From NCBI GenBank assembly GCA_043803745.1, contig JAZDJS010000048.1, forward strand, positions 4,385 through 68,384: a DNA stretch of 64,000 nt, read 5' to 3'. The notes beneath the pieces were generated by a model. That model searched no databases. It was not told where the DNA came from and worked only from the letters and a program-made list of their open reading frames with translations. Shown here in pieces: positions 1,715-18,925 of the stretch. This DNA is from an archaeon. Its GTDB lineage: Archaea > SpSt-1190 > DYHY01. A program made the position numbers and the translations under genes. Every line of letters starts with the position of its first letter. Within the stretch, counting starts at the first letter, position 1.

Positions 1715-4700
1715 CTAGAACAGACCGGTCAGCCAATTCCAGAAATTCTGGAAGGCTCCGAACAGTCCAGTGAAGAATCCAGTCTGTCCGACAGGCGGCT
1801 GTTGTGGCGCTATTGTAGTGGTCGTCGGAACAGTTGTTGTAATTTCCGGCTGCTGCTCTTCTTGCCCCGGTTGTCCCTGGCTTCCTGCGCCTTTTGTGCT
1901 CTTCACGCGCGTCGAAGCAGTATAGTCGATTCCGCCAATCCTTGCTGTGAACTGAACCGTGCCGTCTGCTCCTTCAGGAACAAGCACAGTTGCAGTCAGC
2001 GTCTGTTCCTCGCCCGATTTGAGCAGTCCAGTTGAGCCAATGTCAACGCGCCATCCTTCCGGAGCGCTTGAGGTTATGTCGGTCCCGTAGTCAGCGCAGG
2101 TTCCATTCACGCTCAGGGTCACTAGGATTTCCGCGAAATCGGTGCTTGTTTCGACGTCGGCTGGCGCGGAAAGCGCAAAGTCAGGCCTGCATGTTTCTGC
2201 GGGCGCGCCTCCGCTTCCTCCGCTGCCTCTCACCGGAGGCGCTGGCGGAGAATACGCGGCTGCCGCATAGTACGAAGCCTTGGTGGCGCGGAACGTGCAG
2301 TAGCCGTCGGCAACGATGCAGGTTGTCGGGTCAAGTATCCCGTCCTGGGTCCGTCCCCCGCTCGGGGAAAGGGAACGGAATATTGAAAGCGTTCCCCCGT
2401 TGTGCGCAGGTCCGACGTAAATCGAAATCTGCATTGACGGGCTGAAATATAGTCCCTGCCCGACGATTCCCCATTGGAACGCTCCGACGGAACTGTAGTT
2501 GGCGGGCAGTCCCGAAGCGCTGAAGCTGAAAATATCCGCCGTAAAATCGCGGATATCTACGGGCAAACCGTCCCCGCGGGTTATCTCGGTTCCGTCTTCC
2601 GGATATGCATAGGAATCTCCGGAGCCTATTGCCAGGTTCGTGAAAACGGTTGTTCCCGCAACCCTGACCAGTGCAGGTCCGTCGCTTGAACCGTAGTTAT
2701 AGCAGTAGAGTTTCCCTTCAGGCGAGAAAGAGAGTTCAAAACACATCCCTCCCGGATATCCGGTGTCCGGATTCGTATATGAAAGGAATGTCACGTTGCC
2801 GTTCGACGGGTCTATCTTGTAAATCGAGCCGTCAGACGAGCTGTCCATCGCGCCAATTCCAGCTCCTAACGCAACCGAGTCCGAGCTAGACCCCTCAGTG
2901 TCGCCGCTTCCATAAAGGATTCCGCTGGGCGAGAAAGCCAAACCCTGCGTGAAGAATTCCCTTCCAGTCTGGATTTCAGCATTTTCAACCTCGCCGAAAA
3001 GCTCCTGGATTATCGCTACGAAGGTCAGCTCTCCAGTTTCCTTGTTAATTGTGTAGAGCCGCGAACCGGAGTTTTGGGGGGTGCTTGACCCCTTCACCCC
3101 ATAGAATGTTCCATCGGGCGCGAACGCTATCGCGTTCATTCCCCCATACCAGTATTCATCACCATAGGATATCTTGGCGATTTGCGAAACATCCCCGGTT
3201 GTCGTGTCGACAGTCGCGAGATAGTCGTTGCAAGGGGATGGTACGTGACCGTGCGCAGCCATGTAAAGAATTCCGTTCCCGTCGAAGGCGAACGCGTAAG
3301 GCCTGATTATTGAGGAGTCGTTTAGGTCGTTTAGCTGAACCTTGAAAGACTCCGCGCCAGTCAGCGGGTCGAGCGTGTAGAGATTGTCTTCATATCCCTT
3401 GTATATCGTTCCGTCAGGCGCCACCGCGAAGGCGGTGTTCTGAGCAGTCCATCCATTTATCGGATAGTTGTATCCGACAAGATGGCCTTGTCCTGCCGCG
3501 AAAGTCTCGAAAAGCCCGAACTCGTTAAGAAGGTCCAGGTTCTCAGTCGTAGTTTCAATCGGCTTGGCGAACGTCGTGCAAGTCTCGTCAAGGCACCAGA
3601 AGGAGAAGTCGACCTTTCCGCTGACATTGCCAATTATTTCCGCAAAGCTAGCTGTTCCCCACCAGTTGCGCCAGGCCTTGATTACTTCGCCCTCCGCTTC
3701 CGCTCCGAGAAGCTCGTTGTCAATTATCTTGTTCTTTTCGACAACTACTCCGGTCGAATCAGCGGAATAAATTCCAACATTGTTCGAATCTATCGTGTTG
3801 TCGTGGATTTTGACTTCGCTCATCTCGTAAAGGTCAATTCCGGAACGGTCGTCCTTCCGCACGCCGTTCGAACTTATCTCGTTCCCGTAAATCTCGAAAT
3901 TCGTTCCGTCGTGGAGGTCCAGGCCCTTTGCAAAGTAGGAAATCTTCACGTTCCGGAGGACGATGTTGTCGCTTTCCGAGGAATAGATTCCACTCCCTTC
4001 AGAAGAGGTCTCTTCGAACTCCGCCGATATTGAAAAGGGCTCTATTATGTCCAGCCCCTTGAACTGGAGTATGCTAAGTCCTTCTATTGTCGCATTGCCG
4101 GAATAGATGCTTATGCCGTTTTCTCCGGGAAGCACGCTGATAATCGAATTGTCAACTCCCGCGCCAATTAATCTCAAATGCTTCTGAATCAAAACCGACT
4201 CGCGCCAGGTCCCTTCAGTCAGTTCGACTGTTCCGTGTTCGTCAACGAGAGTCGTTCCTTCGCTGATTGTCGCTTTCGGCGTCACAATGACGTAGGGCGT
4301 TGAAATCCAGTAAAAAGCGGTTTCAGGATCGTCGATTTTCACCGAGGAAATCTTCGTCATCAGGTTTTCCGAGCCTTCGCTCTCAAGGGAGCAGATTTCC
4401 GCCGTGCCGCAGACAGCCCCTCCGTCGGTTCCGTAGATTGTCCCGGGCTTGGACATGATGACTGCTTCGTCATATGTCTCGTTGTCAACGACATAGACGC
4501 TCCCCGCGGGGAACATTGCGTCAACCCCGGCTTGGACTGCGTTGAACGCGTCATAGCCCCAGGTATGGCCGTCGTTGCCGCAGGGTCCCTGCTCTAAGAC
4601 GTCGGGAGTGACTTGGGTGTTCGGGTCGCAGTATTCCTTGCTCACATAGACTGAGCTAGGCCTGTTGTCGTAATGGACGAAGGAACTATCGGTTGTGTTT

Positions 4701-5476
4701 TCCTCGGTAAATGTCGCGGAGTTTCCGGCAGTGTCAGTTACAGTGAACTCGAACGGGACAATTCCGGCAGGGTCTTCTGGATACATCTGGATGAATCCGT
4801 CGATTTCCGGGTCAATCCGCAGGGCTCCGCCAACGCTTGCAAGGCGGCCTTCGATTGTGAATGTTCCTAGTGTGAACTCTTCAGATGAGCCGGCTGCCTT
4901 GACATAGACATATGTCCATGGGCGGGCAAAGGAGGAATTGCCTGAAAAGTCGGAATTGATTCCGACTTGCTCGAATGTCGGGGCGGTCATGTCGAAAGTG
5001 ACGCTTGAACCGTCGGTCGTGGTCGTGACGGGATAAGTTTGAACTAGCAGGGAGCTGACTAGGGGAAGCGCATATGGGTATATCGAGAAAGGAACAATCC
5101 CTTCGGCATCCGATGATTGCATCGCATATTGGGAAACGTATGAAAAGCCGATTGCGGTTCCTTGGTTGGCGATTTCCTGAACAATCGGAACGGAGTGTCC
5201 GGCGATTGTAACTTCAGTCGTCGTTTCGTTAAGGAGCTGATCGGATGAGAACCTCAAAGTGACATTGTCGCCGACTTGCGCGTAAAGGGGGTTCTGGTTG
5301 TCGGAACTTATTCCAACTGGGAAAATGAATGGACCTGGAACCGGGGTCGCCATTGCCGGGGCAATCATCAGCGCTAAAATCGCGAAAATTGCGCAAAGCG
5401 CGGAAAGAAAACCGCCGAACCCCTTCTTGCCTGAAAAACCCGCTTCGTTGTCATAGTTCTGTTTCTTGTTTGTCAT
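1715..5476 (-). CDS. giant secreted surface protein (signal/anchor N-terminus, beta-propeller-like and parallel beta-helix repeats, Thr-rich stalk, conserved aromatic C-terminal tail)
   Basis: 1253 aa. The N-terminus has a basic stretch then a hydrophobic helix (ALCAIFAILALMIAPAMA). Internal N-x-I/V-x-x-N repeats are typical of right-handed beta-helix. The C-terminus is TTTVPTTTTIAP...GFFTGLFGAFQNFWNWLTGLF. Confidence 0.8.
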   Translation of the reverse strand: MTNKKQNYDNEAGFSGKKGFGGFLSALCAIFAILALMIAPAMATPVPGPFIFPVGISSDNQNPLYAQVGDNVTLRFSSDQLLNETTTEVTIAGHSVPIVQEIANQGTAIGFSYVSQYAMQSSDAEGIVPFSIYPYALPLVSSLLVQTYPVTTTTDGSSVTFDMTAPTFEQVGINSDFSGNSSFARPWTYVYVKAAGSSEEFTLGTFTIEGRLASVGGALRIDPEIDGFIQMYPEDPAGIVPFEFTVTDTAGNSATFTEENTTDSSFVHYDNRPSSVYVSKEYCDPNTQVTPDVLEQGPCGNDGHTWGYDAFNAVQAGVDAMFPAGSVYVVDNETYDEAVIMSKPGTIYGTDGGAVCGTAEICSLESEGSENLMTKISSVKIDDPETAFYWISTPYVIVTPKATISEGTTLVDEHGTVELTEGTWRESVLIQKHLRLIGAGVDNSIISVLPGENGISIYSGNATIEGLSILQFKGLDIIEPFSISAEFEETSSEGSGIYSSESDNIVLRNVKISYFAKGLDLHDGTNFEIYGNEISSNGVRKDDRSGIDLYEMSEVKIHDNTIDSNNVGIYSADSTGVVVEKNKIIDNELLGAEAEGEVIKAWRNWWGTASFAEIIGNVSGKVDFSFWCLDETCTTFAKPIETTTENLDLLNEFGLFETFAAGQGHLVGYNYPINGWTAQNTAFAVAPDGTIYKGYEDNLYTLDPLTGAESFKVQLNDLNDSSIIRPYAFAFDGNGILYMAAHGHVPSPCNDYLATVDTTTGDVSQIAKISYGDEYWYGGMNAIAFAPDGTFYGVKGSSTPQNSGSRLYTINKETGELTFVAIIQELFGEVENAEIQTGREFFTQGLAFSPSGILYGSGDTEGSSSDSVALGAGIGAMDSSSDGSIYKIDPSNGNVTFLSYTNPDTGYPGGMCFELSFSPEGKLYCYNYGSSDGPALVRVAGTTVFTNLAIGSGDSYAYPEDGTEITRGDGLPVDIRDFTADIFSFSASGLPANYSSVGAFQWGIVGQGLYFSPSMQISIYVGPAHNGGTLSIFRSLSPSGGRTQDGILDPTTCIVADGYCTFRATKASYYAAAAYSPPAPPVRGSGGSGGAPAETCRPDFALSAPADVETSTDFAEILVTLSVNGTCADYGTDITSSAPEGWRVDIGSTGLLKSGEEQTLTATVLVPEGADGTVQFTARIGGIDYTASTRVKSTKGAGSQGQPGQEEQQPEITTTVPTTTTIAPQQPPVGQTGFFTGLFGAFQNFWNWLTGLF

Positions 5477-5595
5477 TTGTTTGCCAACCCCAATCTGTTA
5501 GGGGCGGAATCTTTCTTTATATATTTAACCTTTACCCTTTCAAAATGATTAGTGGAGTTTTCCCCGCTGCAGCCGGCGAAACCCGAAAATACTGA

Positions 5596-5714
5596 AAAAG
5601 CGAAACTATGCAAAATTGCACAAAATACCAAAAAACGGGCAAATTTGCATGCTCCCTTTAAAGTGGCCACAAAATAACAAAGCTTAAAAAGGTGAAGGTA
5701 ACTAGGGAGGGACT
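5596..5714 (+). promoter_or_regulatory. divergent promoter region for the two giant surface-protein genes; SD GGAGGG 5 nt upstream of the ATG at 5715
   Basis: AT-rich segment with TATA-like CTTTAAAG / AGCTTAAAAAG boxes and a GGAGGG Shine-Dalgarno before 5715. Confidence 0.35.
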
Positions 5715-8700
5715 ATGGGGAAGTTTAGCAAGATTTTAGGACTAGTTGTAGTTTTGTCTGTTTTCGCAGCGTTTGCAGTCGGAGTCGGATTTTCGGTAAC
5801 GGAGCTGAAATATGACGACGGGACAATAGGTTATAGTGGGACTTGGCTTGATTCCGATGGCCAATACGTTGTCAAGTTCGCGCCCGCGCACAAGGGGGAA
5901 ATAACCTGGCTAGGGGCATATGTTTCAAAGGACGGCTCGGACGACGAATGGTGGGCTGGACTTTTGAATTCCGACTATTCAACACTTTCCCCATATGTAC
6001 TGAATTACATTTCGGGCTCAAGCGCCTGGAGATATGCAAGCTTCTCAACAGTCGTTTCCTCCCCATTCTATGCGGCAGTGAAACTCCAGGGATCTGATGA
6101 CGCCCGCCTAGGAAAGGACGGTTCTTCAACTTCAGGCTATAGCGAAGCCAACACAGGTTCCGGCTGGTCAGCGGTCTCAGGGAACCACATGATCCGCGCA
6201 TATATCGACTATTTCCCCGAAGCTTCAAGCATTTCCTTCTCGGAAAACCCGACTTCTGCAAGTTCAGTTACCGTTTATGCGACTTGCACCGAATACGATT
6301 CCGACGACGATGTTGACCACGCCCAAGTCCGGGTTGACGGCGGCTCCTGGGACTGGATGTCCGCTTCCGACGGGAGCTTTAATGAGAACTCCGAGAACGC
6401 ATACAAAACAATTTCGATTTCAGGTCTTTCTGATGGCGACCACACTGTCGAGGTCCGCTGCGAAGACGAGAACAGCAACTGGGGCGACCCGGTTTCGGCA
6501 ACCCTGACAAAGGGGACTTCAGACACGACCGCTCCGGTGACAACCGATGATGTTCCTTCCGGATGGAAGAACACGGATGTCACGGTGACTTTCACCTGCA
6601 CAGATTCGGGCTCTGGCTGCGACAAGGTCTATTACACAACTGACGGGAGCGAACCTGATTCCGGCTCCTCCTATGTCGATTCAGCCTCAAGCTGGCAGTT
6701 CACAATGTCCTCAGAAGGGCAATACACAATCAAATACAGGGGAGTTGACGTTGCAGGGAACTGGGAAACGACGAAGACTGCAGCAAACCTCCTTAGCATT
6801 GACAAGACCGCTCCGGGAATTTCCGGGGCTGCGACAGAAGGCCCTAACGGATTGAATGGCTGGTATGTCTCGGACGTCACGGTAAGATTCGACTGCACAG
6901 ACGACCTTTCCGGTCCGGTTGAATCCTTCTTTGACATTTTCATGACAACTGACGGAGCTGGCCAGTCGGCTTCCGGAACCTGCTACGACCTTGCGGGGAA
7001 TTCCGCAGGAACGACTGTCTCGAACATTGACATTGACAAGACAGTTCCAAGCATTTCCGGGACAGTCAGCCCCTCGCCAAACGGGGATGGCTGGAACAAG
7101 GAGGACGCTACAGTCCATTTCGACTGTTCCGACGCAACTTCCGGAATCTCCTCTTGCACATCAGACGTTCTCGTTACGACTGAAGGAGAAACTCTCGTTA
7201 CCGGGACTGCAATTGACAATGCGGGCAACTCCGCGACAGCCGACATAACGGTAAAACTTGACAAAACGGATCCGGTCACGGAAAGCTCATTTAACCCGGC
7301 AGCCCCAAACGGGCTTAACGGCTGGTATGTTACCGAACCGGAAATAACCCTGACTTTCACAGACGCAGACCCGTCCTCAGGGAAAAAATGGACGAAATAC
7401 AAGGTCAATGGCGGAGATGCTGAGACATATTCGGCTCCGTTCGCGCTTCCCGAAGGAATCCACGAACTGAAATTCCACTCAAAGGACAGGGCGGACAACA
7501 CTGAGGGCTGGAACACAATCTCGAACATAAAGGTCGACACGACTGCTCCCGAAGCGCCCGAATTCTCGGGAACTTCCCCATACTATGACGGAGACGGGGA
7601 CTTTTACGTTTCCTGGAGCTCTTCGAGCGATGCGACATCGGGAATAAGGGGCTATGCCCTATACCGGTCGCTTAACGAAGGGTCGTTCGTCCTCATGGGA
7701 GTTTTCCTCGACACAACCTACCACGAGCAAAGCCCCGGAATCGATTCAAGATACGGCTACAAGGTTTCCGCAATTGACAATGCGGGGAACGAAGGGGCTC
7801 AGAGCGAAGAGAAGGTTGTCGTAGTCGACAGGATGGACCCGACAGCGCCGCTTATGCACGACCTTCCGCCATATATCGGCGAAACAGAGGTTACTGCCTC
7901 CTGGGACCATGCGGCTGACACCGGCGTCTATCCTTCCGGAATATCGACATATGATGTCTATGTGAATAGCGCACTTGACGGCAGCACAACATATCCGGAC
8001 AACGACTATTACAAGGACTCGCTTGCGAACGAGCAGACCTACCTTTTCAAGACGAATGCCTGGGACAAATCAGACCCTGCAAACGAGGGTCCGATGTCAA
8101 ACGAGGTCGGGACAACTGTCGACCTGACTGACCCGGTCACAACCGCGATTTTCAACCCGGAGACTCCGAACGGGAACAACGGCTGGTATATCTCAAGACC
8201 GTCGATAACTCTTTCGGCAGTTGATTCGGGCTCGGGCGTCTACAAGACATATTATTGCTTCGACCAGATTGCTTCTGGAACCAGTTCCCTTGATGTTGAG
8301 ACTGAGGAGACTGAGGAGACTGGGGACAACGAGACTGTTGAAGGCGACCGCTGGCATCCGACAACAACAACGACTGTCGCACCAACACCATGCACGCCAT
8401 CCGCCGAATACACAGGACCCTTCCAGATAGACACGGAAGGGACCAACTATGTCAGGTTCTATTCGGTTGACAACGTCGGGAATGTGGAAACGGTCAATGA
8501 AGTCTCATTCAAGCAGGACCTTAACGAGCCGACGAACCAGTGGTTTTTCCTCAATGGAGGCAATTACTATTCGGACGACTCTGACGTTGGAGCGTGGTAT
8601 GATTCCGGGAAGGATACAAGCAAAGGCAGCGGACTTGACTATTGCGTAATTGACTGGGGAGACGATTCCCAGACAACTGTCTCGAAATCAAGCAACCACG

Positions 8701-10568
8701 TGCACCACACATATGCCGACGGCGAATATACCGCAAGCTATGTCTGCTATGACAATGCGGGGCACTCGAGCGAGCCTGAAACCGACGAGATTTTCGTTGA
8801 CACGGTAGACCCGGCAACATCAGCTGCGCTCAATCCGGCGGAGCCGGACGGGGACAACGGCTGGTATGTTTCTGAGGTTGAAGTCGCTCTGACTGCAACA
8901 GACCCGGAGCCAGCATCGGGAATATACCGGACCTATTACTGCGTTGACCAGATTCCAGATGGGAGCGGCGACGACGCAATTGAAGGAACTGAAGTTGACG
9001 GCGACTGGGGATGGCATCCTCCAAGGCCTTGCACTCCGAACACAAGATATACGCATCCGTTCGACGTCTCTGATGACGGGACGAACTATGTGCGGTTCTA
9101 TTCCGTTGACAAGGCTGGAAACGAGGAAGAAACCCAGACAATCTCTTTCAAGCAGGACGAGACAAACCCGGAAACCGACCACTCGGTTTCCCCAAGGAAC
9201 CCTGACGGGGACAACGAATGGTATGTCTCGGAAGTTGACGTGACTCTTGACGCTGACGATGACACATCCGGCGTCTACCAGACACTCTACTGCGTGAAGC
9301 AAAGCCTTGCCTGCGAAGAAGAGGAAGAAGGGGATGGCGAACCGGAACCAACTTGGTGGCATCCCCCTGCGCCGGAAGAGCCTGAATGCGAACCGGACAC
9401 TCTCTATGACGGGACTTTCACAGTGCTTCTAGAAGGGAAGACCTCAGTAACCTACATGTCAATTGACAATGCGGGAAACGAGGAGGAAATGCACACCTTC
9501 TCGTTCAAGCAGGACTGGACCGACCCGACAACGACAGCGACAACCGACCCGTCCGAACCGAACGGGAACAACAGCTGGTTCAACTCAACAGTTCAGTTCA
9601 ACCTTACCGCTGTTGACGGGCGTGCTGAAACGCCTTCCGAACCGGAAGGGGAAACAATCGAATCCGGCTGCTTCTGGTGGTGGTGGCAGCATCCGCCTGC
9701 GGATGGAGAAGTTCCATGCACCTCTGGAGTCCACAGAACGTACTATTGCATTGACTATGGCGCGGAAACTGGGGTTGTCGGCTGCTCAGCCGAATCCGAG
9801 GATTGCGGGGCATGCTACCCGAGGACAAGATACACGGAGCCTCTGAACCTGACCTATGAGGGACTGCAAACAATCCGGTTCTTCTCGGTTGACAAGGCCG
9901 GTAACCGCGAGGGAATCCAGGAACAGGGAATCTGGATTGACACGGTTGCCCCGGAAAGCACAATAACTGCTCCGGCGAACATGTCGAACTATTCGGCAAT
10001 CGGGACCCTTGTAATCAGGGGGAACAGCTCGGACGAGACAAGCGAAATCTTCGCAGTCGAAGTTGTTGTCAAGAACGCGGGAGGCTATGCGCTGATGAAC
10101 TGGACCGCTTCCGAAATTAACGCGACAGGGGACTGGAATTTCACCTGGACGCCTGGCGGATACGGGACCTACTACATAAGCTCGAGGGCAATCGATGCTG
10201 CGGGTAACTTTGAAACGGAGCCGGAAGAGATTGTTGTCTACTTCCCGGAGCCGCCTCTCAAGGTGCAAACCTATGGCGGGTTCTACGTAAGGACCTGTGG
10301 CAACGGGGTCTGCAACGCGAACATCGGCGAGAACGAACGGACCTGTCCGGAAGACTGCAAGGCTCCTGAAGAGGAAGAGCCTCTTGAGAACGCCGAAGAG
10401 CTAGTCAACCAAGTGACGACAACGACGGTCCAGCCGACGACAACGACGACGGTCCAACCCCAGCAAGGGACGCTTAACCCGAGACCGGGAATGCTCCCAA
10501 CAGGACGGTTCGTCCTTTTCGACCTGGCGGACCAGTTCTGGCAGTGGCTGTCTGGTTTGATGCAGTAA
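5715..10568 (+). CDS. giant secreted adhesin-like protein with at least 8 tandem NGWY-type Ig-like repeats, an FN3-like module, acidic stretches, a Cys motif, a Thr-rich stalk and a conserved aromatic C-terminal tail
   Basis: 1617 aa with an N-terminal signal peptide (MGKFSKILGLVVVLSVFAAFAVG). The unit P(N/D)G-x-NGWY-x-S-x-V-x-V-x-(F/L)-x-(C/A)-x-D-x-x-SG-(V/I) recurs at least 8 times, as in OmpL47-type / chitobiase-C Ig-like domains. It is followed by CGNGVCNANIGENERTCPEDC, a TTTTVQPTTTTT stalk and ...FVLFDLADQFWQWLSGLMQ. Confidence 0.85.
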   Translation: MGKFSKILGLVVVLSVFAAFAVGVGFSVTELKYDDGTIGYSGTWLDSDGQYVVKFAPAHKGEITWLGAYVSKDGSDDEWWAGLLNSDYSTLSPYVLNYISGSSAWRYASFSTVVSSPFYAAVKLQGSDDARLGKDGSSTSGYSEANTGSGWSAVSGNHMIRAYIDYFPEASSISFSENPTSASSVTVYATCTEYDSDDDVDHAQVRVDGGSWDWMSASDGSFNENSENAYKTISISGLSDGDHTVEVRCEDENSNWGDPVSATLTKGTSDTTAPVTTDDVPSGWKNTDVTVTFTCTDSGSGCDKVYYTTDGSEPDSGSSYVDSASSWQFTMSSEGQYTIKYRGVDVAGNWETTKTAANLLSIDKTAPGISGAATEGPNGLNGWYVSDVTVRFDCTDDLSGPVESFFDIFMTTDGAGQSASGTCYDLAGNSAGTTVSNIDIDKTVPSISGTVSPSPNGDGWNKEDATVHFDCSDATSGISSCTSDVLVTTEGETLVTGTAIDNAGNSATADITVKLDKTDPVTESSFNPAAPNGLNGWYVTEPEITLTFTDADPSSGKKWTKYKVNGGDAETYSAPFALPEGIHELKFHSKDRADNTEGWNTISNIKVDTTAPEAPEFSGTSPYYDGDGDFYVSWSSSSDATSGIRGYALYRSLNEGSFVLMGVFLDTTYHEQSPGIDSRYGYKVSAIDNAGNEGAQSEEKVVVVDRMDPTAPLMHDLPPYIGETEVTASWDHAADTGVYPSGISTYDVYVNSALDGSTTYPDNDYYKDSLANEQTYLFKTNAWDKSDPANEGPMSNEVGTTVDLTDPVTTAIFNPETPNGNNGWYISRPSITLSAVDSGSGVYKTYYCFDQIASGTSSLDVETEETEETGDNETVEGDRWHPTTTTTVAPTPCTPSAEYTGPFQIDTEGTNYVRFYSVDNVGNVETVNEVSFKQDLNEPTNQWFFLNGGNYYSDDSDVGAWYDSGKDTSKGSGLDYCVIDWGDDSQTTVSKSSNHVHHTYADGEYTASYVCYDNAGHSSEPETDEIFVDTVDPATSAALNPAEPDGDNGWYVSEVEVALTATDPEPASGIYRTYYCVDQIPDGSGDDAIEGTEVDGDWGWHPPRPCTPNTRYTHPFDVSDDGTNYVRFYSVDKAGNEEETQTISFKQDETNPETDHSVSPRNPDGDNEWYVSEVDVTLDADDDTSGVYQTLYCVKQSLACEEEEEGDGEPEPTWWHPPAPEEPECEPDTLYDGTFTVLLEGKTSVTYMSIDNAGNEEEMHTFSFKQDWTDPTTTATTDPSEPNGNNSWFNSTVQFNLTAVDGRAETPSEPEGETIESGCFWWWWQHPPADGEVPCTSGVHRTYYCIDYGAETGVVGCSAESEDCGACYPRTRYTEPLNLTYEGLQTIRFFSVDKAGNREGIQEQGIWIDTVAPESTITAPANMSNYSAIGTLVIRGNSSDETSEIFAVEVVVKNAGGYALMNWTASEINATGDWNFTWTPGGYGTYYISSRAIDAAGNFETEPEEIVVYFPEPPLKVQTYGGFYVRTCGNGVCNANIGENERTCPEDCKAPEEEEPLENAEELVNQVTTTTVQPTTTTTVQPQQGTLNPRPGMLPTGRFVLFDLADQFWQWLSGLMQ

Positions 10569-10584
10569 GGTAGGCAAGGAGAAA

Positions 10585-10623
10585 GAGTCCCCAAGAGGGG
10601 ACCTTTTTCTTTTTTATTTTTTA
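10585..10623 (+). terminator. intrinsic-type terminator (hairpin GTCCCC-AAGA-GGGGAC plus T-tract)
   Basis: Perfect 6-bp GC stem immediately followed by CTTTTTCTTTTTTATTTTTTAT, 17 nt after the stop at 10568. Confidence 0.6.
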
Positions 10624-10668
10624 TCGGACCAGCCAAAGCAATAAAAGCGGGACGTTATTGTTCCAGAA

Positions 10669-11601
10669 ATGAAAGTCTATTTCCTTTCTCCGAACAGGAA
10701 GCAGCTGATTTTTCCGGAGGCGGAAGCAAGGCTTGCCGGGCTGGACGTGCATTTTGAGGAGAAGAAGAAGAAACCCCTGGAGAAAGTCAAGGGGCTCCTT
10801 TCGCCCGGGGAGAAGATTCTCGCGCTCGACCCGGACTTTTGCTCCTGGAACTTCCCGAAACGGGAGCTGGAAAAAATCCCGGACCTGAAAGCAATCTGCC
10901 TCCAGACGACCTCGTTCTCCTGGGTTGATTGTTCCGCTGCGAAGGAACGGGGAACCCCGGTGATCAACGTCAGGAACTATTCGACCGATTCGGTTGCGGA
11001 ATGGGCGGTCCTGATGGCTTTGATGGTCGGACGGAAAATCCCGCTCGTTCTCAAGGACAAACTGAAGAGGAATATTGCTCGCCACAAAGGCTTCGGGACC
11101 GATGGGAAGGTTGCGGGAATAATCGGCTTAGGTCATATTGGGAAAAGGATCGCTGAGCTCTGCCTCGGACTTGGAATGGATGTGATCTATTGGTCAAGGG
11201 CTTCGCGGGACAGCCGTTTCCGGCTCGCCGGCGGACTTGCAGAGATTTTTGAGACTGCAGATTTCATTTTCCCCGCCCTTGCCAAGAATGAGGAGAGTGC
11301 GAAACTGATAACAGACGACTTTCTGAAAAGGATGAAAGGGACGGCGATTTTCACAAGCATTGTCCACGCGGTTTACAACGAGAAGCTGCTTTTGAGGCTT
11401 GCCGAAGCGGGAAAAATAGGCGGCTATGCTTTCGAGTTCGAGCCGGGCGAGGAGAAGAAATTCTCAAAGCTTTCCGGGAACATACTTGCGCTCCCGGGGC
11501 TTGCCTGGGCAACAGACAGTTCGTTCAGGCGGAACGGAGAGATTTGGGTGGAGAACATCCTGAAAGCGGCAAAAGGGGATTTTTCCGGACGGATTAACTG
11601 A
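10669..11601 (+). CDS. D-isomer-specific 2-hydroxyacid dehydrogenase family (phosphoglycerate/glyoxylate reductase-like)
   Basis: 310 aa with the NAD-binding Rossmann motif GIIGLGHIGKRIAELCLGLGMDV and overall D-2-HADH architecture. Confidence 0.8.
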   Translation: MKVYFLSPNRKQLIFPEAEARLAGLDVHFEEKKKKPLEKVKGLLSPGEKILALDPDFCSWNFPKRELEKIPDLKAICLQTTSFSWVDCSAAKERGTPVINVRNYSTDSVAEWAVLMALMVGRKIPLVLKDKLKRNIARHKGFGTDGKVAGIIGLGHIGKRIAELCLGLGMDVIYWSRASRDSRFRLAGGLAEIFETADFIFPALAKNEESAKLITDDFLKRMKGTAIFTSIVHAVYNEKLLLRLAEAGKIGGYAFEFEPGEEKKFSKLSGNILALPGLAWATDSSFRRNGEIWVENILKAAKGDFSGRIN

Positions 11602-12256
11602 ATTTTCTTTTTCCCCTGTCCGTGCTGCGGCACCGAGGGTCTGAGGACCAAACGGTTTTTTCCGAAGGAAAAAGGAGTTCAAGAAGTCAAGAAGTTTCAG
11701 AACGGCACTGTCGAGCCATCAGGCGAAGATAGTGCGCTTTCCCCGAGGGCTTTTGCAAAGGGCTCGAGAATGGCGCCAAGACAGTCAAGAAAAAGGGTTT
11801 CCGGAAGCGCGCAAGCGACCTGATAAAAATGGCGTTTCCCGTGAACGGACTTTTTCCAGAGGAAAAAAGGGGTTCTGGAATGGCGTAAGCCCATCATTGG
11901 CCGACATTTCCCTTTTCAGGGTTCGTCCGTTTCTTCTAGGACACCTCAGGGCCTTTTTGTGTTTGCTTGCTTGTTTGCTGCTCTTTGTTTTTTCCCGGGC
12001 CAGCGACAAATCCGGACCGGGGTCTCGTTTGTGGAGCGACGAACCTGCCCTTATACGCCTTGGGGCGAGTCCATCTCTCGTTTCTTCGTTCTCTCTATTC
12101 TCCGAAGGTCACCGGGTCCGGATCGTGACCGGACGCTTTCCCTGTTTCGGGGAGTGTGCCCTGCAGATTTTTTCTGTGGGTTCTGTCTGTTGGACAGGGG
12201 TGAGAAAGTTGCTGAGCTAACAGCAACCTCCGTTTCTGTTCCTTCTGCGGCTACTA

Positions 12257-12304
12257 GAACTGGCTAGTTGTTGAGATCCAGTTCCACGCATTCTCTCTTT
12301 TTTG
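12257..12304 (+). terminator. terminator-like hairpin (GAACTGG/CCAGTTC, 7 bp) followed by TTCTCTCTTTTTTG
   Basis: Perfect 7-bp stem with a 14-nt loop and a T-rich tail; sits in intergenic space. Confidence 0.35.
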
Positions 12305-12486
12305 ACAGGACTAGGAGTTGCGGAGCGATGAATGTGATTTAGGCAGGTAAGCGGTGATGAACTGCCGCGTCCCCTCAGGGCGCTATAATGGGTTTTATGG
12401 GGGTGGCTTTCTGGAAGAACAAAGCCCCCAAGGGGACGGCTGGCTGTCGGAAACCGGCTTACAGGGCTCAGACAATTCTTCCCGCA

Positions 12487-12526
12487 GCCGCAGCCTATGA
12501 GGGCTGCGGCCGTAATTGGGGTTTTT
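12487..12526 (+). terminator. terminator-like hairpin (GCCGCAGCC/GGCTGCGGC, 9 bp, loop TATGAG) followed by GGGGTTTTTGGGG
   Basis: Perfect 9-bp GC stem plus a T5 run. Confidence 0.35.
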
Positions 12527-12681
12527 GGGGTTTGGCTGGTGAGAAGTTGCATGGAAGAAAAGCCCTCGGAAACCCTTAAGGTAAGCCGGTTTGACTGGGA
12601 ATTTGTCATTTGATTATTTTTCTTTCCTTAGTTTTCTTTTCTGATTCTTTTTTGGTTGTTTGAAGAGTGGGGTGACGGAAG

Positions 12682-12716
12682 GGCCGGCGCCTGCCGGCCA
12701 ATCCGCTCTTTTTTTT
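12682..12716 (+). terminator. terminator (GGCCGGC-GCCT-GCCGGCC hairpin plus T8)
   Basis: Perfect 7-bp GC stem and tetraloop, with a T8 run 9 nt downstream. It is on the plus strand, although the adjacent ftsZ is on the minus strand, which implies a plus-strand transcript upstream. Confidence 0.5.
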
Positions 12717-12806
12717 CCCGCTCTCGTGTTTCTCTTCGTTCTTTTGCTCTTGCCGCGTGTCTGGTTTGCGTTTTGCTGCGGCTTCTTCTTGTCTTTGTTC
12801 GTCTGT

Positions 12807-13874
12807 TTAGGCAAGCACAGGTATTCCAAGGCTGTTTGCTGTCTGCTTCGTCCTCACTGAAGTTTCCCTTGGATTCACTGCGCCGAGGATGTGAGGCGAC
12901 TTTACTCCGGTAATTATCGTCATTACGCGGATTGAGCCTTCCAGTGCCGGGTCGATTCTCGCTCCCCAGATTACTGATGCGCCCGCATCCATGTCCTTCG
13001 CTACAAGGTCTCCGATCGTGTTGACCTCGTCCAGCGTCATGTCCGGTCCTCCGACAACATGCACCATTGCGCCGGTTGCGCCCTTGTAGTCAACATCGAG
13101 CAACGGGTTCGAAAGCGCCTTCCGGACAGCTTCCTCAGCGCGGTTCTCGCTTGTCGATTCCCCGACTCCGATTACCGCAACCCCGCCGTTTGACATTACT
13201 GCCTTGACGTCCGCATAGTCTAGGTTGACAAGGCTTGGAACTGCAATCGTCTCGACAATCCCCTTGATCATTGTTGCAATCAATTCGTCTGCAACAGCGA
13301 ATGCCTGGGCAATTGGGAGCTTTCCTGCAACCTCGACGAGCCTGTTGTTGTCAATCACGATTACGGTGTCCGTCGTCTGCCTGAGCTCATAGAGTCCCGC
13401 TTCAGCCTTGAAAATCCGCGCCTTTTCCATTTTGAAAGGCATCGTCACAACGCCGATTACAATCGAGCCCTGTTCCTTCGCAAGCTGCGCAACGACTGGC
13501 GCGCTACCGGTTCCGGTTCCTCCGCCCATTCCAGCAGTCACAAAGACCAGGTCACAGTTTCTGAGAGAATCCTTTATTTCGTTCCTCGCTTCCTCAGCTG
13601 CCGCCCTTCCGACTTCTGGATATCCGCCAGCCCCAAGGCCTTTTGTAAGGTCGCGTCCGATCAAGATCTTCTTGTCAGCTTCCCTTGCATCAAGGTGTAG
13701 CTTGTCTGTGTTGAGAGCTACAACCGTCGCGCCCTGTATCCCAAGCCTGTAAAGCCTGTCTGCAGTGTTGTTTCCGGCTCCTCCACAGCCGACTACCACT
13801 ATCCTGGCTTGGCCGACTTCAAAGTCTGCCCCAGGTCTTGCCGCGTTTGCCGCACTTTGTAGGACGTAGTCCAT
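12807..13874 (-). CDS. ftsZ: cell division GTPase FtsZ
   Basis: 355 aa with the tubulin signature GGGTGTGSAPVVA, an N-terminal GCGGAGNN GTP-binding loop and a NTD(K)L motif. Confidence 0.95.
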   Translation of the reverse strand: MDYVLQSAANAARPGADFEVGQARIVVVGCGGAGNNTADRLYRLGIQGATVVALNTDKLHLDAREADKKILIGRDLTKGLGAGGYPEVGRAAAEEARNEIKDSLRNCDLVFVTAGMGGGTGTGSAPVVAQLAKEQGSIVIGVVTMPFKMEKARIFKAEAGLYELRQTTDTVIVIDNNRLVEVAGKLPIAQAFAVADELIATMIKGIVETIAVPSLVNLDYADVKAVMSNGGVAVIGVGESTSENRAEEAVRKALSNPLLDVDYKGATGAMVHVVGGPDMTLDEVNTIGDLVAKDMDAGASVIWGARIDPALEGSIRVMTIITGVKSPHILGAVNPRETSVRTKQTANSLGIPVLA

Positions 13875-14333
13875 TTTCTTTTTTCACCCCGGTCATTTCT
13901 TTCTTTGACACTTTCCCGGTCCATTTCCCGGACGTTTGCCCGAGGATTGCATCGGAGTGCCGAAATGACTATATACCTTGGATAGCGTTAGCTACCCCAA
14001 GAAGTTCGAAAACAATTGAACCTTACCAGTTCAAGAAAATAGAATTTCAACTACCAAACTAGAAAAGACGGAAAGGACCTGTCCGAAACGCTTACCAGGC
14101 GTCCGGGCAAATGCCAAGAAACCGTTACCAGCGGCTCTTGCGCGTTGCGAATCCTACTTCTCTTTCCGCCGTTTTGATATATATCCCTAGTTGCACTCTG
14201 AATACTGCTATCAAATCAGTGTAGCCAAGAGCAATAATTGAAGTTTGGCGTTCTAGGCGCTGAATCCCCGGAATTCTTGAATTGACCCTTTGCGGATAGT
14301 CACTTTTTTGAGTAGTATTTATACCTGAAAGAG

Positions 14334-15155
14334 TCAGGCAATTTTCTTCAGCCGGATGTATTCCTCTCCGGCAGCAGTTTCAATTGGTTCAGCCTCGAAA
14401 GAATATCTCGGTCCCTGCCAAACTCCGTCCTTCGGATGGATTTTTTCCGGAGAAAAATTGCAGTTTTGCGTGCGGCAACGGAGTATGCGATCGTAAGTTG
14501 AGATTTTGGCGCTCAATTTGGTTACCTCCGCAGGATTGCTCGAGTCAATTAGCAGTAACCCTCCCGGAACAAGCACTTTGTCAAATGCGGCAAGCTGCCT
14601 GTCGAGAAGCGATTCAAGTTGATATGCCGCGTGCCAGGTTGCGCCAAGCCGGTCGTACACCAAATGCGCGGAGGAAGCTTCAAGAGGAGGCTTGAGTGCA
14701 TTTGCAGCAACAAGGACCGGCTGTTTTCCGCATCCAGTAAGCTCGTGGAGACTCTTTGTTTCGAGCGGCCGTTCAAGGACTGGATAGCCCGGCGGAGGAT
14801 TCCCGTCCAGACTGGATTGGTCGTAGAAATATTGCCAGCCGAGCTTCTCGCCCGCAGCCCTCACCAGCTCGCTGACAAGGTCTCCGCCAACAACAAGGGC
14901 GGGCTTGCCCCTCTCGGAAAGCTCCCTGTGAAAAACTTCGGTTGAATGCTGCATGTTGCCCGAGGGAATCCAGCAAACTGGCGTTTCTCCGGCTGTCGAA
15001 CCCAGCAGAGCAAGTTCGGCAACTGCGAATTCCGCTGCTGCGGAAAAGAGGGGCTCTGAAATCTCCCTGAGTTCCGCGTCCCAGTCTACATCCTCGCCGC
15101 CAGGCAGGTACATTTTCCTGATTCTTGAAGCAAGCGTTCTGCCGAGAAAATCCAT
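14334..15155 (-). CDS. hypothetical protein (possibly Rossmann-fold/methyltransferase-like)
   Basis: 273 aa. The DKVLVPGGLLLID segment resembles a post-I beta-strand motif of class I methyltransferases, but no clear GxGxG motif is present. Confidence 0.4.
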   Translation of the reverse strand: MDFLGRTLASRIRKMYLPGGEDVDWDAELREISEPLFSAAAEFAVAELALLGSTAGETPVCWIPSGNMQHSTEVFHRELSERGKPALVVGGDLVSELVRAAGEKLGWQYFYDQSSLDGNPPPGYPVLERPLETKSLHELTGCGKQPVLVAANALKPPLEASSAHLVYDRLGATWHAAYQLESLLDRQLAAFDKVLVPGGLLLIDSSNPAEVTKLSAKISTYDRILRCRTQNCNFSPEKIHPKDGVWQGPRYSFEAEPIETAAGEEYIRLKKIA

Positions 15156-15242
15156 TGTTTAAACTGGCAACTGCTACTTTATAATAGTTACTCACTCGAA
15201 AGTGAAAAGAAAACCTTAAAAATTCCAGATGAGACTAATCAT

Positions 15243-15650
15243 ATGGGCGACCGTTATACAGTAGAGGATTTTGACAGGTATTTGCGAACTGCCGCAACGG
15301 AAATTGTGAATAGACATTATCAGGCGACGGCCCAGGCGGCGGCAGATGCAATCGGGATTGCGGCAGACGTTTCTCTCAGTCCAGAAGAATCTGGAAAATA
15401 TTCCGGCGTTCCCGAGGAACTCCTCGCGATTTCCAAGGCCCTTTTCGACCTCACTGCAAACAGCTCGGCTTTGCTTAAAAGGGATTCCAACCCGGCTAAA
15501 CTGAAGACTCTTGCAGTAAGCAGACTTGAACGCGCTGATTTCGGGAAAATCGGAGCGGTCTTGGGTCCGGACCTAGCGGGCTGCCTTGAGGGAATCGTGG
15601 AAGAAAAAACCAACGAATACCATCGCGCCGAGTGGATCAATGTGGACTAA
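15243..15650 (+). CDS. hypothetical protein
   Basis: 135-aa ORF, mostly helical by composition; no motif recognised. Confidence 0.4.
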   Translation: MGDRYTVEDFDRYLRTAATEIVNRHYQATAQAAADAIGIAADVSLSPEESGKYSGVPEELLAISKALFDLTANSSALLKRDSNPAKLKTLAVSRLERADFGKIGAVLGPDLAGCLEGIVEEKTNEYHRAEWINVD

Positions 15651-15696
15651 TTCATTTTGAAAAATATATAAGTCCCGAACGCACCGGAACTTCCGG

Positions 15697-17868
15697 ATGG
15701 GCTCTTTGCGGAAACGTTCGGTCTTTCTCCTTTTGCTCCTGTGTCTCCTGCTTTCGCTCGCCAACTCTGCCGAAATCTCCTCCTGCGGAACCGAGATCTC
15801 CTCTTCCGGAAGCTATTCCCTCTCAAAGAACATCTCCGGCTCAAGCATAAACATCCAGAACGTGTACCTGGCTTGCCTGAAGGTTTCCTCATCCCACGTT
15901 TCAATTGACTGCGCGAATTTTTCAATAACGGAGAGCTCCCCGGGAAAAACTGTCGGAATTTTCGTCCAGGGGCTTGTGAGGAACGTCACAATTCGCAACT
16001 GCAAGAGCCTTTCCGGATTTGAAACCGGAATCTACCTTTCCGGGGCTCTTGACGGGGGGATTTCGGGCTCGAATATCACCGGGAACATCAACGGAATCAG
16101 GCTGATTTCCTCGGAAAACTTCAACCTTACCGAAAGCAATGTTTCGGGGAACGTCATCGGGCTCTACAGCTATTTCGGGGAACGGAATTTCGCGGTCGGG
16201 AACATCTTTTCCCGGAACCGCCTCGTCGGAATAAAGGTCGAGGGACCGACTGCCCAGCGGCTTCCCGGACAGGGGAACTTCTTCTTTTGGAACAACGTTT
16301 CCGGAAGCGAGCAGGGATTCGAAATAACTAGGGCGAACGGGAACCTGCTCATAGGCAATCAGATCTCAAACTCAAGCATGTACGGGATACGCATCGCATA
16401 CTCAAGGGACAACAACATCTCCCTGAACGCGATTTCGGGCTCGAAGAGGGTCGGCCTCTTCCTTGACACCTCCTCGGGCAACCTGTTCAGCTGCAACAAT
16501 TTCTCCGGAAACCTTGTTGACATTGACACCTACTATGCAAACGAGAACCTTGGAAACGCATCCTGCGACGGGGCCAATGTAACGATTGGAACGCCCCAAA
16601 ACCAGACCAGGACAACTGCGCAGCTAACGACGATCCCTGCTTGCGCCTGCACCCCTTGGGTTTCCCGGGGATGCAATACGGGAAGCTGCCAATACGGAAG
16701 CGAATTCTCGGAAAGGTCCTGCGCACCGGCGGGATGCGCATCGGAGAAAACGTGCATAATAAACGCATATTGCTATCGGCAGATTCCACTGGAAAACGCG
16801 CCCCAGACGAGCGTTCCCATCGAATCGTCCTGCCCTGCGAACTGCGACGATTCCAATCCTTGCACTGTCGATTCCTGCTCGGAAGAAACGGGCTTCAATT
16901 GCCGCCACGCAAGCCTACCTGAAGGGGCTTCCTGCGGAAAAGACCTTTTCTGCAAGGCAACTAGCGAATGCGCGCAAAAAAGCGAGCCACAGCAAAGCTG
17001 CCCTGCTTGTTCCGAACCGGGTGCTTGGTCCGGATGCTTGGATGGCGTGCATAGCCGGACAATACAGATATGCGGCCAGGAAACCGGATATTTCTGCGTT
17101 CCATACATTGAAAGGGGGGCTTGCCTGCTTCCGGCGCAGACAACCGTCCCTGCCGCAACAGCGCCCCCTTCCTCGTGCAGGGAGAACTCGGAATGCCCGG
17201 CAACGAATGTCTGCTCGGGAGGGCAGTGCGTTCCCGCAAAGCTGGTTCTTGTTTTTGTTCCGCTCAATTGGACTGGGAGCGCGCAGAGTTTCTCGGAAGA
17301 GGCCGATCGTCAGGCGAATTTCCTTCTGGCGAACCTGCCCCTTTCCGGCTGCCCGGAGAAGGTCAAGATTCTGAAGGGAACCGAACCCTGCGCTGCGCAG
17401 ATATCCTGCAAATATTGCGGCGAGGCGCTTTCAATCCGGAGCTGCGCAAAAAGGGTTTCGGCAAGCGTTGACATTGCGATAGGGCTCACGAACCTGGACT
17501 CCCTCTGCAAGACGGAAATCCGCGGATTCTCCTGCGGTGCGGGGGGCGTTTTCGTCAAATCGGGCGGTTCCGAGGTTCTTGCCCACGAGGTTGGGCACGA
17601 GTTCGGTCTCCGCGACGAATATTGCAATTACGGAACCCGCTGCGGGGAATTCGCAGCTCCAAATCCCCTCCGCGCGGAATACGGCTGCAATCCCTCGGAT
17701 GCGAACTGCTGCTGGTGCTCCGGAAGCTATTCAGTCTGCTGCTATGGGAACGTTAACGAGTTCGGCGGACGCTCGATCATGAGTTATGCCGGAGCCCCCG
17801 CCCCCAGGGCTTTCGACTATCCGGCGCTTGCGCACCTTAAAAGCCTGGAAAAACTGAGGTGTAACTGA
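15697..17868 (+). CDS. secreted parallel beta-helix (NosD/CASH-like) protein with a Cys-rich region and a C-terminal HExxH zinc-metallopeptidase-like motif
   Basis: 723 aa with a signal peptide (MGSLRKRSVFLLLLLCLLLSLANSA). It has about 10 repeats of the form G-I/N-x-x-x-x-S-x-N-x-I/F-S/T-G-N. The central third carries more than 20 Cys, and the C-terminus has LAHEVGHEFGLRDEYC (HExxHxxGxxDE). Confidence 0.7.
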   Translation: MGSLRKRSVFLLLLLCLLLSLANSAEISSCGTEISSSGSYSLSKNISGSSINIQNVYLACLKVSSSHVSIDCANFSITESSPGKTVGIFVQGLVRNVTIRNCKSLSGFETGIYLSGALDGGISGSNITGNINGIRLISSENFNLTESNVSGNVIGLYSYFGERNFAVGNIFSRNRLVGIKVEGPTAQRLPGQGNFFFWNNVSGSEQGFEITRANGNLLIGNQISNSSMYGIRIAYSRDNNISLNAISGSKRVGLFLDTSSGNLFSCNNFSGNLVDIDTYYANENLGNASCDGANVTIGTPQNQTRTTAQLTTIPACACTPWVSRGCNTGSCQYGSEFSERSCAPAGCASEKTCIINAYCYRQIPLENAPQTSVPIESSCPANCDDSNPCTVDSCSEETGFNCRHASLPEGASCGKDLFCKATSECAQKSEPQQSCPACSEPGAWSGCLDGVHSRTIQICGQETGYFCVPYIERGACLLPAQTTVPAATAPPSSCRENSECPATNVCSGGQCVPAKLVLVFVPLNWTGSAQSFSEEADRQANFLLANLPLSGCPEKVKILKGTEPCAAQISCKYCGEALSIRSCAKRVSASVDIAIGLTNLDSLCKTEIRGFSCGAGGVFVKSGGSEVLAHEVGHEFGLRDEYCNYGTRCGEFAAPNPLRAEYGCNPSDANCCWCSGSYSVCCYGNVNEFGGRSIMSYAGAPAPRAFDYPALAHLKSLEKLRCN

Positions 17869-18512: not shown

Positions 18513-18517
18513 TAACT

Positions 18518-18874
18518 GTGGAAGGGACAAGCCGGGAGAAGATGGCTCCGGCAAGGCGTTACATAGTAAGGGACATAGAAGACGCAAACGAATTTGCAGC
18601 GGATGCGAGAACTGGCCGCGGGGAGCATTTCGGATTCTTCCACCAAGGCCCTTTGCTTTCCAATGCGGCTAGGAAGGAAGCTCTTGAAAAAGCCTGGGAA
18701 CACTGGAACGCTGCATACAGGGGCCTTGCGCACTATGCCGGGGATTCCTTCCCGCTATTCACGCATCCGATACTTTTGTTCAGAGTCTTGGCAGCAGAAA
18801 ACGCGGTTAAATATGCCGATGGATCTCTCGAATCTGAACTGAGGGCAAACTACAAGCAACCAGTCGCCGTTTGA
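18518..18874 (+). CDS. hypothetical protein
   Basis: 118-aa ORF directly downstream in the same orientation. Confidence 0.35.
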   Translation: MEGTSREKMAPARRYIVRDIEDANEFAADARTGRGEHFGFFHQGPLLSNAARKEALEKAWEHWNAAYRGLAHYAGDSFPLFTHPILLFRVLAAENAVKYADGSLESELRANYKQPVAV

Positions 18875-18925
18875 GAAACTCGGTCAAAGACCCCGCCAGC
18901 CCTAAAGGGCGGAGGCTTTCGCGAT

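Follow-up and report, generated by a model that had tools for sequence, protein, structure and literature searches.

Two giant surface-protein genes, here called A and B, are transcribed divergently near one end of a 64,000-nucleotide stretch of archaeal DNA (contig JAZDJS010000048.1 of assembly GCA_043803745.1, positions 4,385 to 68,384); this whole stretch is referred to below as the window. A preliminary description of the same DNA reported two divergent open reading frames (ORFs) with unrelated bodies, each giving way to a Thr/Pro-rich stalk and then to a short, aromatic, alignable C-terminal tail, and all of these features were confirmed at the positions given in Table 1. The body of A contains a right-handed beta-helix (PF13229/NosD and PF05048 matches at residues 412-591) and a NEW3-like beta-sandwich (PF10633 at residues 1119-1179). 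That of B is built of about nine OmpL47-type/CHB_HEX_C barrel repeats (NF047446, 9 stretches, 5.7e-76; PF13290) and additionally includes a Big_7 domain (PF17957 match) and a Cys motif. Domain scans show the two bodies to be unrelated to each other, and it is the tail that they have in common, and what it might do, that is considered here.

Table 1. Features of genes A and B and of two further genes (window coordinates; strand as given)
Feature	Position	Strand	Description
Gene A	1715..5476	minus	ORF, 1253 aa; identical to NCBI MFH0962166.1
Tail of A	1718..1783	minus	TGFFTGLFGAFQNFWNWLTGLF, then stop codon TAG at 1715-1717
Stalk of A	1784..1894	minus	Thr/Pro-rich, KGAGSQGQPGQEEQQPEITTTVPTTTTIAPQQPPVGQ; from the translation
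Signal peptide of A	5348..5476	minus	Predicted Sec-type, aa 1-43, ...FLSALCAIFAILALMIAPAMA; read from the translation
Intergenic region between A and B	5477..5714		238 bp; genes divergent
Gene B	5715..10568	plus	ORF, 1617 aa; identical to NCBI MFH0962167.1
Signal peptide of B	5715..5795	plus	Predicted Sec-type, aa 1-27, MGKFSKILGLVVVLSVFAAFAVGVGFS; read from the translation
Repeats of B with acidic loop	8100-9800		aa ~800-1360 of B
Stalk of B	10362..10499	plus	Thr/Pro-rich, APEEEEPLENAEELVNQVTTTTVQPTTTTTVQPQQGTLNPRPGMLP; from the translation; conserved in the L001 orthologue
Tail of B	10500..10565	plus	TGRFVLFDLADQFWQWLSGLMQ, then stop codon TAA at 10566-10568
NosD-like secreted protein	15697-17868		723 aa
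Histidyl-tRNA synthetase-like ORF	37226-39028		600 aa

Over the last ~60 residues of A and B, BLASTP aligns 12 identical residues in 28 (E = 7e-5, calculated for this one comparison). Between the two 22-residue tails there is an indel of one residue (QNFWNW in A versus Q-FWQW in B), and because of it the search expression of the preliminary description, 'Q.FW.WL', finds no literal match in B, although the shared tail itself stands. In a six-frame translation of the window, A and B are the only ORFs longer than 112 aa with W.W[LIVMF] at most 12 residues from the stop; A has no further W.W, and the three internal occurrences in B are not tail-like. A dispersed repeat was rejected as the source of the similarity, since only these two ORFs in the window end in this way and neither holds an internal copy of the tail.

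Searching with full-length A recovered a pair of orthologues that are 40-42% identical to it, P0002 with 2072 aa and P0003 with 2056 aa, in which a stalk of VVTTTVAP repeats is followed by PTGFFTGFLTGLQNLWNWLASLFGGQ or QTGFFAGFLTGLQNLWNWLSGLFGGQ and the stop codon. The contig of P0002 (L001) is syntenic with the window and carries an orthologue of B as well, a protein of 1603 aa encoded divergently from the A orthologue and ending in LPTGQFVLFELADGFWQWLNGLFR. Both tail types are present again in a further lineage (L139, L140, L141, L174, L204). The A-type tail is conserved in P0002, P0003 and the L139 orthologue, and the B-type tail in the orthologues of L001, L139 and P0014. A lack of conservation in orthologues had been named beforehand as grounds for giving up the idea of a functional tail; what was found is that the tail is kept in orthologues of both A and B from other metagenomes.

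The extent of this conservation is best judged against the rest of the locus. Between the window and L001, FtsZ is 97% identical, whole-protein identity is 46% for A and 65% for B, and two other secreted proteins stand at 53% and 46%; the last 40 aligned columns are 62% identical in A and 75% in B. By direct reading, 14 of 14 tail substitutions stay within class and keep the hydrophobic/polar pattern, the exchanges seen being L/F, G/T, A/G, T/A, G/S, R/Q, D/E, Q/G, S/N, M/F and Q/R. The stalk/tail junction, [PQ]-T-G-x-F, is invariant in all seven sequences and lies 21-24 residues from the C-terminus, and no more than 0-3 residues separate the tail from the stop codon in any orthologue. Stop codons at this same position are TAG, TAA, TAA and TAG in the orthologues; because they vary, the tail ends are true protein ends, and read-through of the stop codon into a hidden transmembrane (TM) segment was rejected. 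Since the tail is conserved while the bodies diverge, these sequences indicate that it is under constraint, and its retention in the orthologues of both proteins supports the earlier view of a position-specific module.

Carriers of the tail appear to be few. A profile of 33 positions, built from four tails and searched against 1.84 billion representative proteins (E <= 1e-3), recovered orthologues of A and of B and, besides these, only a spurious pair of leucine-rich-repeat proteins (P0013 and P0015), which match 'LPTGIFTGL' and were rejected as tail carriers. The profile cross-matches the leucine-rich-repeat consensus 'LPTGIFTGLTAL', and false positives of this kind are to be expected of any hidden Markov model of the tail. 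On archaeal contigs, a metagenome DNA scan found A-type and B-type tails only; the window and ~130 kb from related archaeal loci contained no other tail-like C-termini, and a genome scan of GTDB representatives, which do not include the window genome, returned no archaeal relative. B-type tails score only 8-12 bits with an A-type profile, and vice versa; a third tail type that had diverged as far as A and B have from each other would therefore have escaped the profile search, and the count of two carriers is a lower bound.

Several physical measures describe the tail as an amphipathic helix. With five tails treated as helices, hydrophobic moments computed at 100 degrees lie in the range 0.27-0.44, and 18-residue stretches attain up to 0.57. 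The moment of the A tail, 0.38, was exceeded by 0 of 2000 shuffles; the best 18-residue moment is 0.48 for the B tail and 0.57 for the L001 B orthologue. Composition-matched shuffles attain the observed moment in 0-2.7% of cases for four of the five tails, and in 9.8% for window B. The helices have a broad Phe/Trp/Leu face and a narrow polar stripe. On B-type tails the polar face holds two conserved acidic residues (D/E7 and D10) and no basic residue, and in the A-type tails of P0002 and P0003 (TGFF-TGFL-TGL) small residues form a stripe of period 4 (GxxxGxxxG). Wimley-White interfacial free energies of the tails are favourable, at -4 to -10 kcal/mol, and the octanol scale gives -6 to -10 kcal/mol for A-type tails.

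TM character is lacking by the same kind of measure. The summed cost on the Hessa scale (with literature values for the scale and literature sequences for PBP5, MinD and FtsA) is +7 kcal/mol for the A tail and +11 to +13 kcal/mol for B-type tails (+13 for window B). The corresponding sums are -2.0 and -1.4 kcal/mol for the signal peptides of A and B, +2.6 kcal/mol for a genuine C-terminal TM helix in the window, whose hydrophobic moment is 0.09, and +13.8 kcal/mol for the Escherichia coli PBP5 anchor. Kyte-Doolittle means are 0.70 (A) and 0.29 (B), and there is no terminal cluster of Lys or Arg, a single terminal Arg in the L001 B orthologue being the sole basic residue at any tail end; the statement that the tail has neither a TM helix nor a basic end thus holds. 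AlphaFold2, given the C-terminal 160 residues of A and an alignment that included two orthologues, predicts a confident beta-sandwich, a disordered stalk without secondary structure (predicted local distance difference test, pLDDT, below 50) and a helix over LFGAFQNFWNWLT in the tail (pLDDT 54-64). The moments, the Hessa sums and the model together support an amphipathic helix rather than a TM segment, and the extreme C-terminal ~18-25 residues are amphipathic and not TM, as in PBP5-type anchors.

At the other end of both proteins, a charged n-region is followed by a hydrophobic h-region. By their translations A and B would thus also resemble PBP5-type anchored proteins in being exported through an N-terminal signal peptide, with putative cleavage sites at the boundaries listed in Table 1. 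AT-rich, TATA-like boxes face each gene in the region between them, TTTATATATTTAA near 5515-5528 on the A side and CTTTAAAG and GCTTAAAAAGG upstream of B, where GGGAGGG lies immediately 5' of the ATG; these boxes are putative promoters.

An independent line of evidence comes from the core of the tail. A DNA pattern for [QHDE]x[FL]W[NQHK]WLxGL[FLIM], with its position left free, was scanned against genomes (81 matches) and metagenomes (112 matches), and ORFs of >=100 aa were read from stop to stop. In genomes, 37 matches lie in such ORFs and 10 of them fall within 4 residues of the stop, where 0.72 would be expected if matches were uniformly placed; in metagenomes the figures are 54, 18 and 1.14. 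The 28 C-terminal cases group into 15 families with unrelated bodies, 13 of which are orthologues of neither A nor B. In these 13 unrelated, non-archaeal families the core, [FL]W[NQHK]WLxGLF(GG), ends 0-4 residues from the stop (loci with a C-terminal core include L071, L075, L083, L086, L092-L094, L113, L135, L161, L165, L168, L185, L211, L213, L222, L224, L227, L244 and others). One carrier is a clostridial DD-carboxypeptidase with Peptidase_S11 and PBP5_C domains, which ends in FWQRLWQWLKGLFS directly after the PBP5_C domain, so that the core occupies the position of the anchor in a member of the PBP5 family. A signal peptide and a Pro/Glu-rich linker precede the core in L092/L113, L093 and L185, and L165 encodes a LamG-like secreted protein that likewise has a signal peptide and a linker; small secreted proteins are found among the carriers too, and others are apparently cytoplasmic, among them TPR proteins, GH2 and a protein that, by reading, we take to be CoxG-like. 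As the pattern fixed sequence and not position, the C-terminal enrichment is independent evidence for a terminal membrane-binding element, and the core seems to be an unnamed C-terminal amphipathic membrane-binding motif.

Some further aromatic tails came to light in these scans. A low-GC metagenome contig, L165, is a second locus with nearby tailed surface proteins: two secreted proteins (L165:176-1183 and L165:2922-3962), with a third surface-protein gene between them, have in common the Cys motif NCG.GSPP.DNGSVFVCP and end in differing aromatic amphipathic tails, FEQFWNWLKGLFGG and FGALWDSIINFFKGIFG. Among virus-labelled contigs, L040 encodes a protein ending in RQTGFWNWLRGFFRA, and L022, L167, L206 and L249 encode a Cys-rich family ending in LWKWLKGLFNE.

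The amphipathic membrane anchor, one of the options raised in the preliminary description, is the best explanation of the tail here. Stated fully, the tail would attach the protein to the membrane of its own cell as an amphipathic anchor lying in-plane or obliquely, independently of any enzyme, and the Thr/Pro stalk would serve as a spacer; in this reading belief and doubt are about evenly balanced. A and B would be exported by Sec via their N-terminal signal peptides. The last 21-24 residues would then form an amphipathic alpha-helix, starting at the [PQ]-T-G-x-F boundary, that settles in the interfacial zone of the outer leaflet of the producing cell's membrane, and this helix would keep a giant protein at the cell surface without a TM segment, lipid modification or processing enzyme. 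The disordered stalk, probably O-glycosylated, would raise the beta-helix or barrel-repeat body off the membrane. The proposed mode is that of the C-terminal amphipathic helix in bacterial PBP5-type DD-carboxypeptidases.

The comparison with the low-molecular-weight PBPs (E. coli PBP5/DacA and PBP6; Peptidase_S11) is the closest that can be drawn. A C-terminal amphipathic helix of 18 residues is the experimentally shown anchor of E. coli PBP5 on the outer face of the inner membrane, and the dependence on this tail was tested by localisation or fractionation of the tail-deleted PBP5 C-delta-18 (PMC2909392). Like these enzymes, A and B appear to combine export by a signal peptide with an aromatic-rich amphipathic helix of ~18-24 residues at the extreme C-terminus and no TM segment; in both cases the helix comes after the last folded beta domain, the physical numbers are comparable, and the clostridial family member described above has an FWQWLxGL core in common with tail B. 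There are differences: A and B belong to an archaeon, whose membranes consist of ether lipids and which lacks peptidoglycan, the anchored protein is adhesin-like and 1253-2072 aa long rather than an enzyme of ~400 aa, a long Thr/Pro stalk is interposed, and in place of a basic polar face A has a neutral and B an acidic one. Domain scans found no S11 catalytic or PBP5_C domain in A or B, only beta-helix and OmpL47/CHB_HEX_C domains; since the two are not members of the Peptidase_S11 family, the comparison is a mechanistic one, and the relationship is probably one of convergence, between non-homologous bodies.

Short C-terminal amphipathic helices also serve as the membrane-targeting sequences of MinD and FtsA, which end in GFLKRLFGG and WIKRLNSWLRKEF, respectively. 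These ends resemble WNWLSGLFGGQ of P0003 and WQWLTGLFGG of L113, but they act on the cytoplasmic face, are shorter and Lys/Arg-rich and bind reversibly under nucleotide control, whereas A and B would be exported. HIV-1's membrane-proximal external region (MPER) is a Trp-rich interfacial helix (LWNWF...NWLWYIK) that is followed by a true TM domain and serves fusion; its local sequence is similar to that of the tails, which is an analogy only, with no evolutionary relation.

The tail can accordingly be called novel only in part. For exported proteins of bacteria, an amphipathic anchor at the C-terminus is an established device (PBP5; PMC2909392), and an FW[NQ]WLxGLF core ends many unrelated proteins. 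What does stand is that targeted literature searches found no description of C-terminal amphipathic anchoring of archaeal surface proteins; a 2018 review of archaeal surface biogenesis treats C-terminal TM helices, archaeosortase-dependent lipid anchors and N-terminal lipoboxes, and the word 'amphipathic' is absent from it (PMC6098224).

A number of points weigh against a membrane anchor. Binding of the tail to a membrane is proposed here from sequence alone. An acidic polar face without a basic residue, as in B-type tails, is unusual for binding to anionic membranes and equally suits a protein partner. The octanol value of A-type tails, as low as -10 kcal/mol, leaves room for shallow or oblique insertion, or for oligomerisation via the GxxxGxxxG stripe. 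AlphaFold2 gives the helix a confidence of just 54-64. A tail confined to two proteins of a single narrow clade would also fit a role specific to the pair. Finally, the search pattern itself accounts for part of the likeness to the bacterial tails, and only their C-terminal position is independent.

A pair-specific role has the most to be said for it among the alternatives, and we consider it unlikely. The tail would then be a docking or oligomerisation helix, binding A to B, each protein to itself, or both to a shared partner such as the S-layer or a small membrane protein, with A and B displayed as one complex. Consistent with this, only A and B orthologues were found to carry the tail (in the 1.84 billion proteins at E <= 1e-3 and among the archaeal matches of the metagenome scan), the two genes are adjacent and divergently transcribed, a comparison of the window with L001 shows both inverted together with respect to FtsZ, and the two are truncated jointly in the L139/L141 variant. 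The acidic face of B-type tails, poor for anionic lipid, and the glycine-zipper stripe of the P0002/P0003 tails would also suit protein contacts. The residues of the two faces, T, G, Q and N on A and D, D, Q and S on B, do not, however, complement each other in charge, and the occurrence of the core at the ends of many unrelated single proteins, a PBP5-type enzyme included, argues for generic lipid binding. A candidate partner did present itself in a conserved 110-aa ORF with three TM segments, found on the same strand just upstream of the A orthologue (L001:7159-7491, L002:205-537, L003:107-439). It has no Pfam match, and because the window has no counterpart of it (tblastn E > 1) it was rejected as an obligate partner.

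That the tail is a weak C-terminal TM segment, or a tail anchor inserted obliquely so as to span or deeply penetrate the bilayer, is distinctly improbable. Its 21-24 residues come to approximately the length of a TM helix, the octanol totals of A-type tails would permit it, and the PBP5 anchor itself has been described as an oblique membrane-penetrating helix (PMC2909392). The Hessa sums of the tails nevertheless lie far above those of the window's real TM and signal segments, and the hydrophobic moment is high, unlike that of the genuine C-terminal TM helix. B-type tails retain two acidic residues and a Gln in the middle of the helix, and in neither type are residues left for the cytoplasmic side or a positive-inside cluster to stop transfer.

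Recognition by an enzyme is a further alternative, and the chance of it here is small. The tail would be a derivative of PGF-CTERM, or belong to an unknown class, and a sortase-like enzyme would cleave at or near [PQ]TG.F and attach the protein to lipid or wall. The invariant T-G-x-F stands exactly at the stalk/tail junction in the seven sequences, and the layout recalls haloarchaeal PGF-CTERM substrates, in which a Thr-rich stalk, a G-F motif and a hydrophobic segment follow one another (PMC6098224). With PGF-CTERM/archaeosortase A (TIGR04126; the Haloferax S-layer glycoprotein), A and B thus share the archaeal surface protein, the Thr-rich stalk directly upstream and a short Gly-Phe-containing motif ~20 residues from the C-terminus, leading into a hydrophobic stretch (PMC6098224). 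They differ in having no Pro-Gly-Phe, no TM-grade helix and no basic cluster: the tails read [PQ]-T-G-x-F and cost +7 to +13 kcal/mol, and the Pro-preceded T-G can equally be read as a helix N-cap.

Curated models agree. With hmmscan, the CTERM sorting models of NCBIfam/Pfam, TIGR04126 among them, gave no match to the full proteins or the isolated tails at E up to 10, and the only family match to the A tail was to a bacteriocin-like peptide (E = 0.028). As there is no model match and no motif, TM or basic layout, A and B do not belong to the PGF-CTERM-like classes. The tails likewise contain no LPXTG, PEP or GG motif and match no model for LPXTG/sortase, PEP-CTERM/exosortase or GlyGly-CTERM/rhombosortase signals, which supports the earlier statement that the tail is unlike known C-terminal sorting signals. 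No exosortase- or archaeosortase-like protein occurs among the unassigned membrane ORFs of the window or the Pfam-annotated genes of L001, L139 and L141. Genomes with an archaeosortase have up to 52 substrates, and some just one (PMC6098224); only two substrate families were found here, in one narrow clade. The companion suggestion, a tag for an unknown sortase-like enzyme, is not supported, given the missing tripartite layout, the two families and the absence of a candidate enzyme in the window and the syntenic loci.

Finally, a membrane-active peptide directed at the host membrane of a DPANN episymbiont, akin to the Trp-rich membrane-proximal regions of viral fusion proteins, is speculative and very improbable: the grouping of the organism with DPANN archaea, the very fast evolution of the surface genes, the weak bacteriocin-like match of the A tail and the fact that literature matches to the core string FWNWL are confined to two HIV-1 papers (one on gp41 MPER scaffolds, the other on neutralising antibodies) are in its favour, but the tail sits at the end of the stalk, the usual place of a self-anchor, with the adhesin-like domains distal, and nothing points to a second anchor by which the producing cell would keep the protein.

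The surroundings of A and B deserve mention. Other genes of the window include archaeal GatD/GatE, FtsZ, a type IV pilus-like ATPase and Suf genes; named relatives of the FtsZ belong to Candidatus Woesearchaeota (63-66% identity), and on this marker the organism is assigned to the DPANN-type archaea. Compared with L001, L142, L144, L145 and L259, the surface-protein genes at 1715-20119 make up an island around FtsZ that evolves fast. Relatives whose FtsZ is 73-82% identical have no A/B pair and no giant gene beside it; GatD lies near FtsZ in these relatives and is adjacent to it in L145 and L259. The truncated variant belongs to a lineage whose FtsZ is 100% identical to that of L001 (L139:6427-10969, L140, L141:2-4289), in which A-like and B-like genes abut head-to-head, 4 bp apart in L139. 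The A-like gene encodes 1189 aa in L139 and, as far as the contig reaches, 1105 aa in L141; the B-like gene encodes 322-324 aa, a remnant found in three independent assemblies. The A-like protein lacks the N-terminal ~870 residues and the B-like protein ~1280, and the signal peptides are gone, with both tails intact; the arrangement looks like a single ~6-7 kb deletion across the divergent promoter.

Within B itself, four barrel repeats have an inserted acidic loop, after which come a Trp-His-Pro-Pro element and a Cys; these repeat-specific insertions read DRWHPTTTTTVAPTPCTP, DWGWHPPRPCTP, PTWWHPPAPEEPECEP and CFWWWWQHPPADGEVPC. The 723-aa secreted protein of the same island joins a NosD-like beta-helix and Cys-rich Dicty_CTDC-type repeats to a C-terminal reprolysin-like (M12B) metallopeptidase and is without a C-terminal tail or TM segment; NosD/Dicty_CTDC genes of similar size occur in L001 and L139 (734 aa). 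Elsewhere in the window, the histidyl-tRNA synthetase-like ORF has, on reading its sequence, an apparent extra C-terminal domain with HxxxH and CGGxH motifs, presumably those typical of AlaX/tRNA_SAD editing domains.

Bacteria are known to anchor exported proteins in an amphipathic, C-terminal manner, and the case of A and B is a lineage-restricted and plausible one rather than a new enzymatic sorting system; as no new enzyme system is indicated, the reach of the finding is moderate. A broader proposal, which may hold but leans towards doubt, is that the core [FL]W[NQHK]WLxGLF(GG), where it stands at the very C-terminal end behind a flexible linker, is a widespread, unnamed and portable membrane-anchoring module that arose repeatedly or was exchanged among bacteria, and that at least one DPANN lineage uses it to hold giant surface proteins without a sorting enzyme. 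If so, it would constitute a self-sufficient 'CTERM' class missed by annotation pipelines, a gap that the strong C-terminal preference of the core across bacteria also suggests, and with A and B the in-plane anchoring of an exported protein by its C-terminus would be seen for the first time in archaea. Membrane-tethered exported proteins of uncultured lineages could then be found by a simple sequence rule. DPANN archaea have tiny genomes and are often attached to other cells, and how they retain very large, fast-evolving surface proteins is little understood; an enzyme-free aromatic amphipathic anchor would be a fourth archaeal mode of anchoring, suited to organisms unable to afford sorting machinery.

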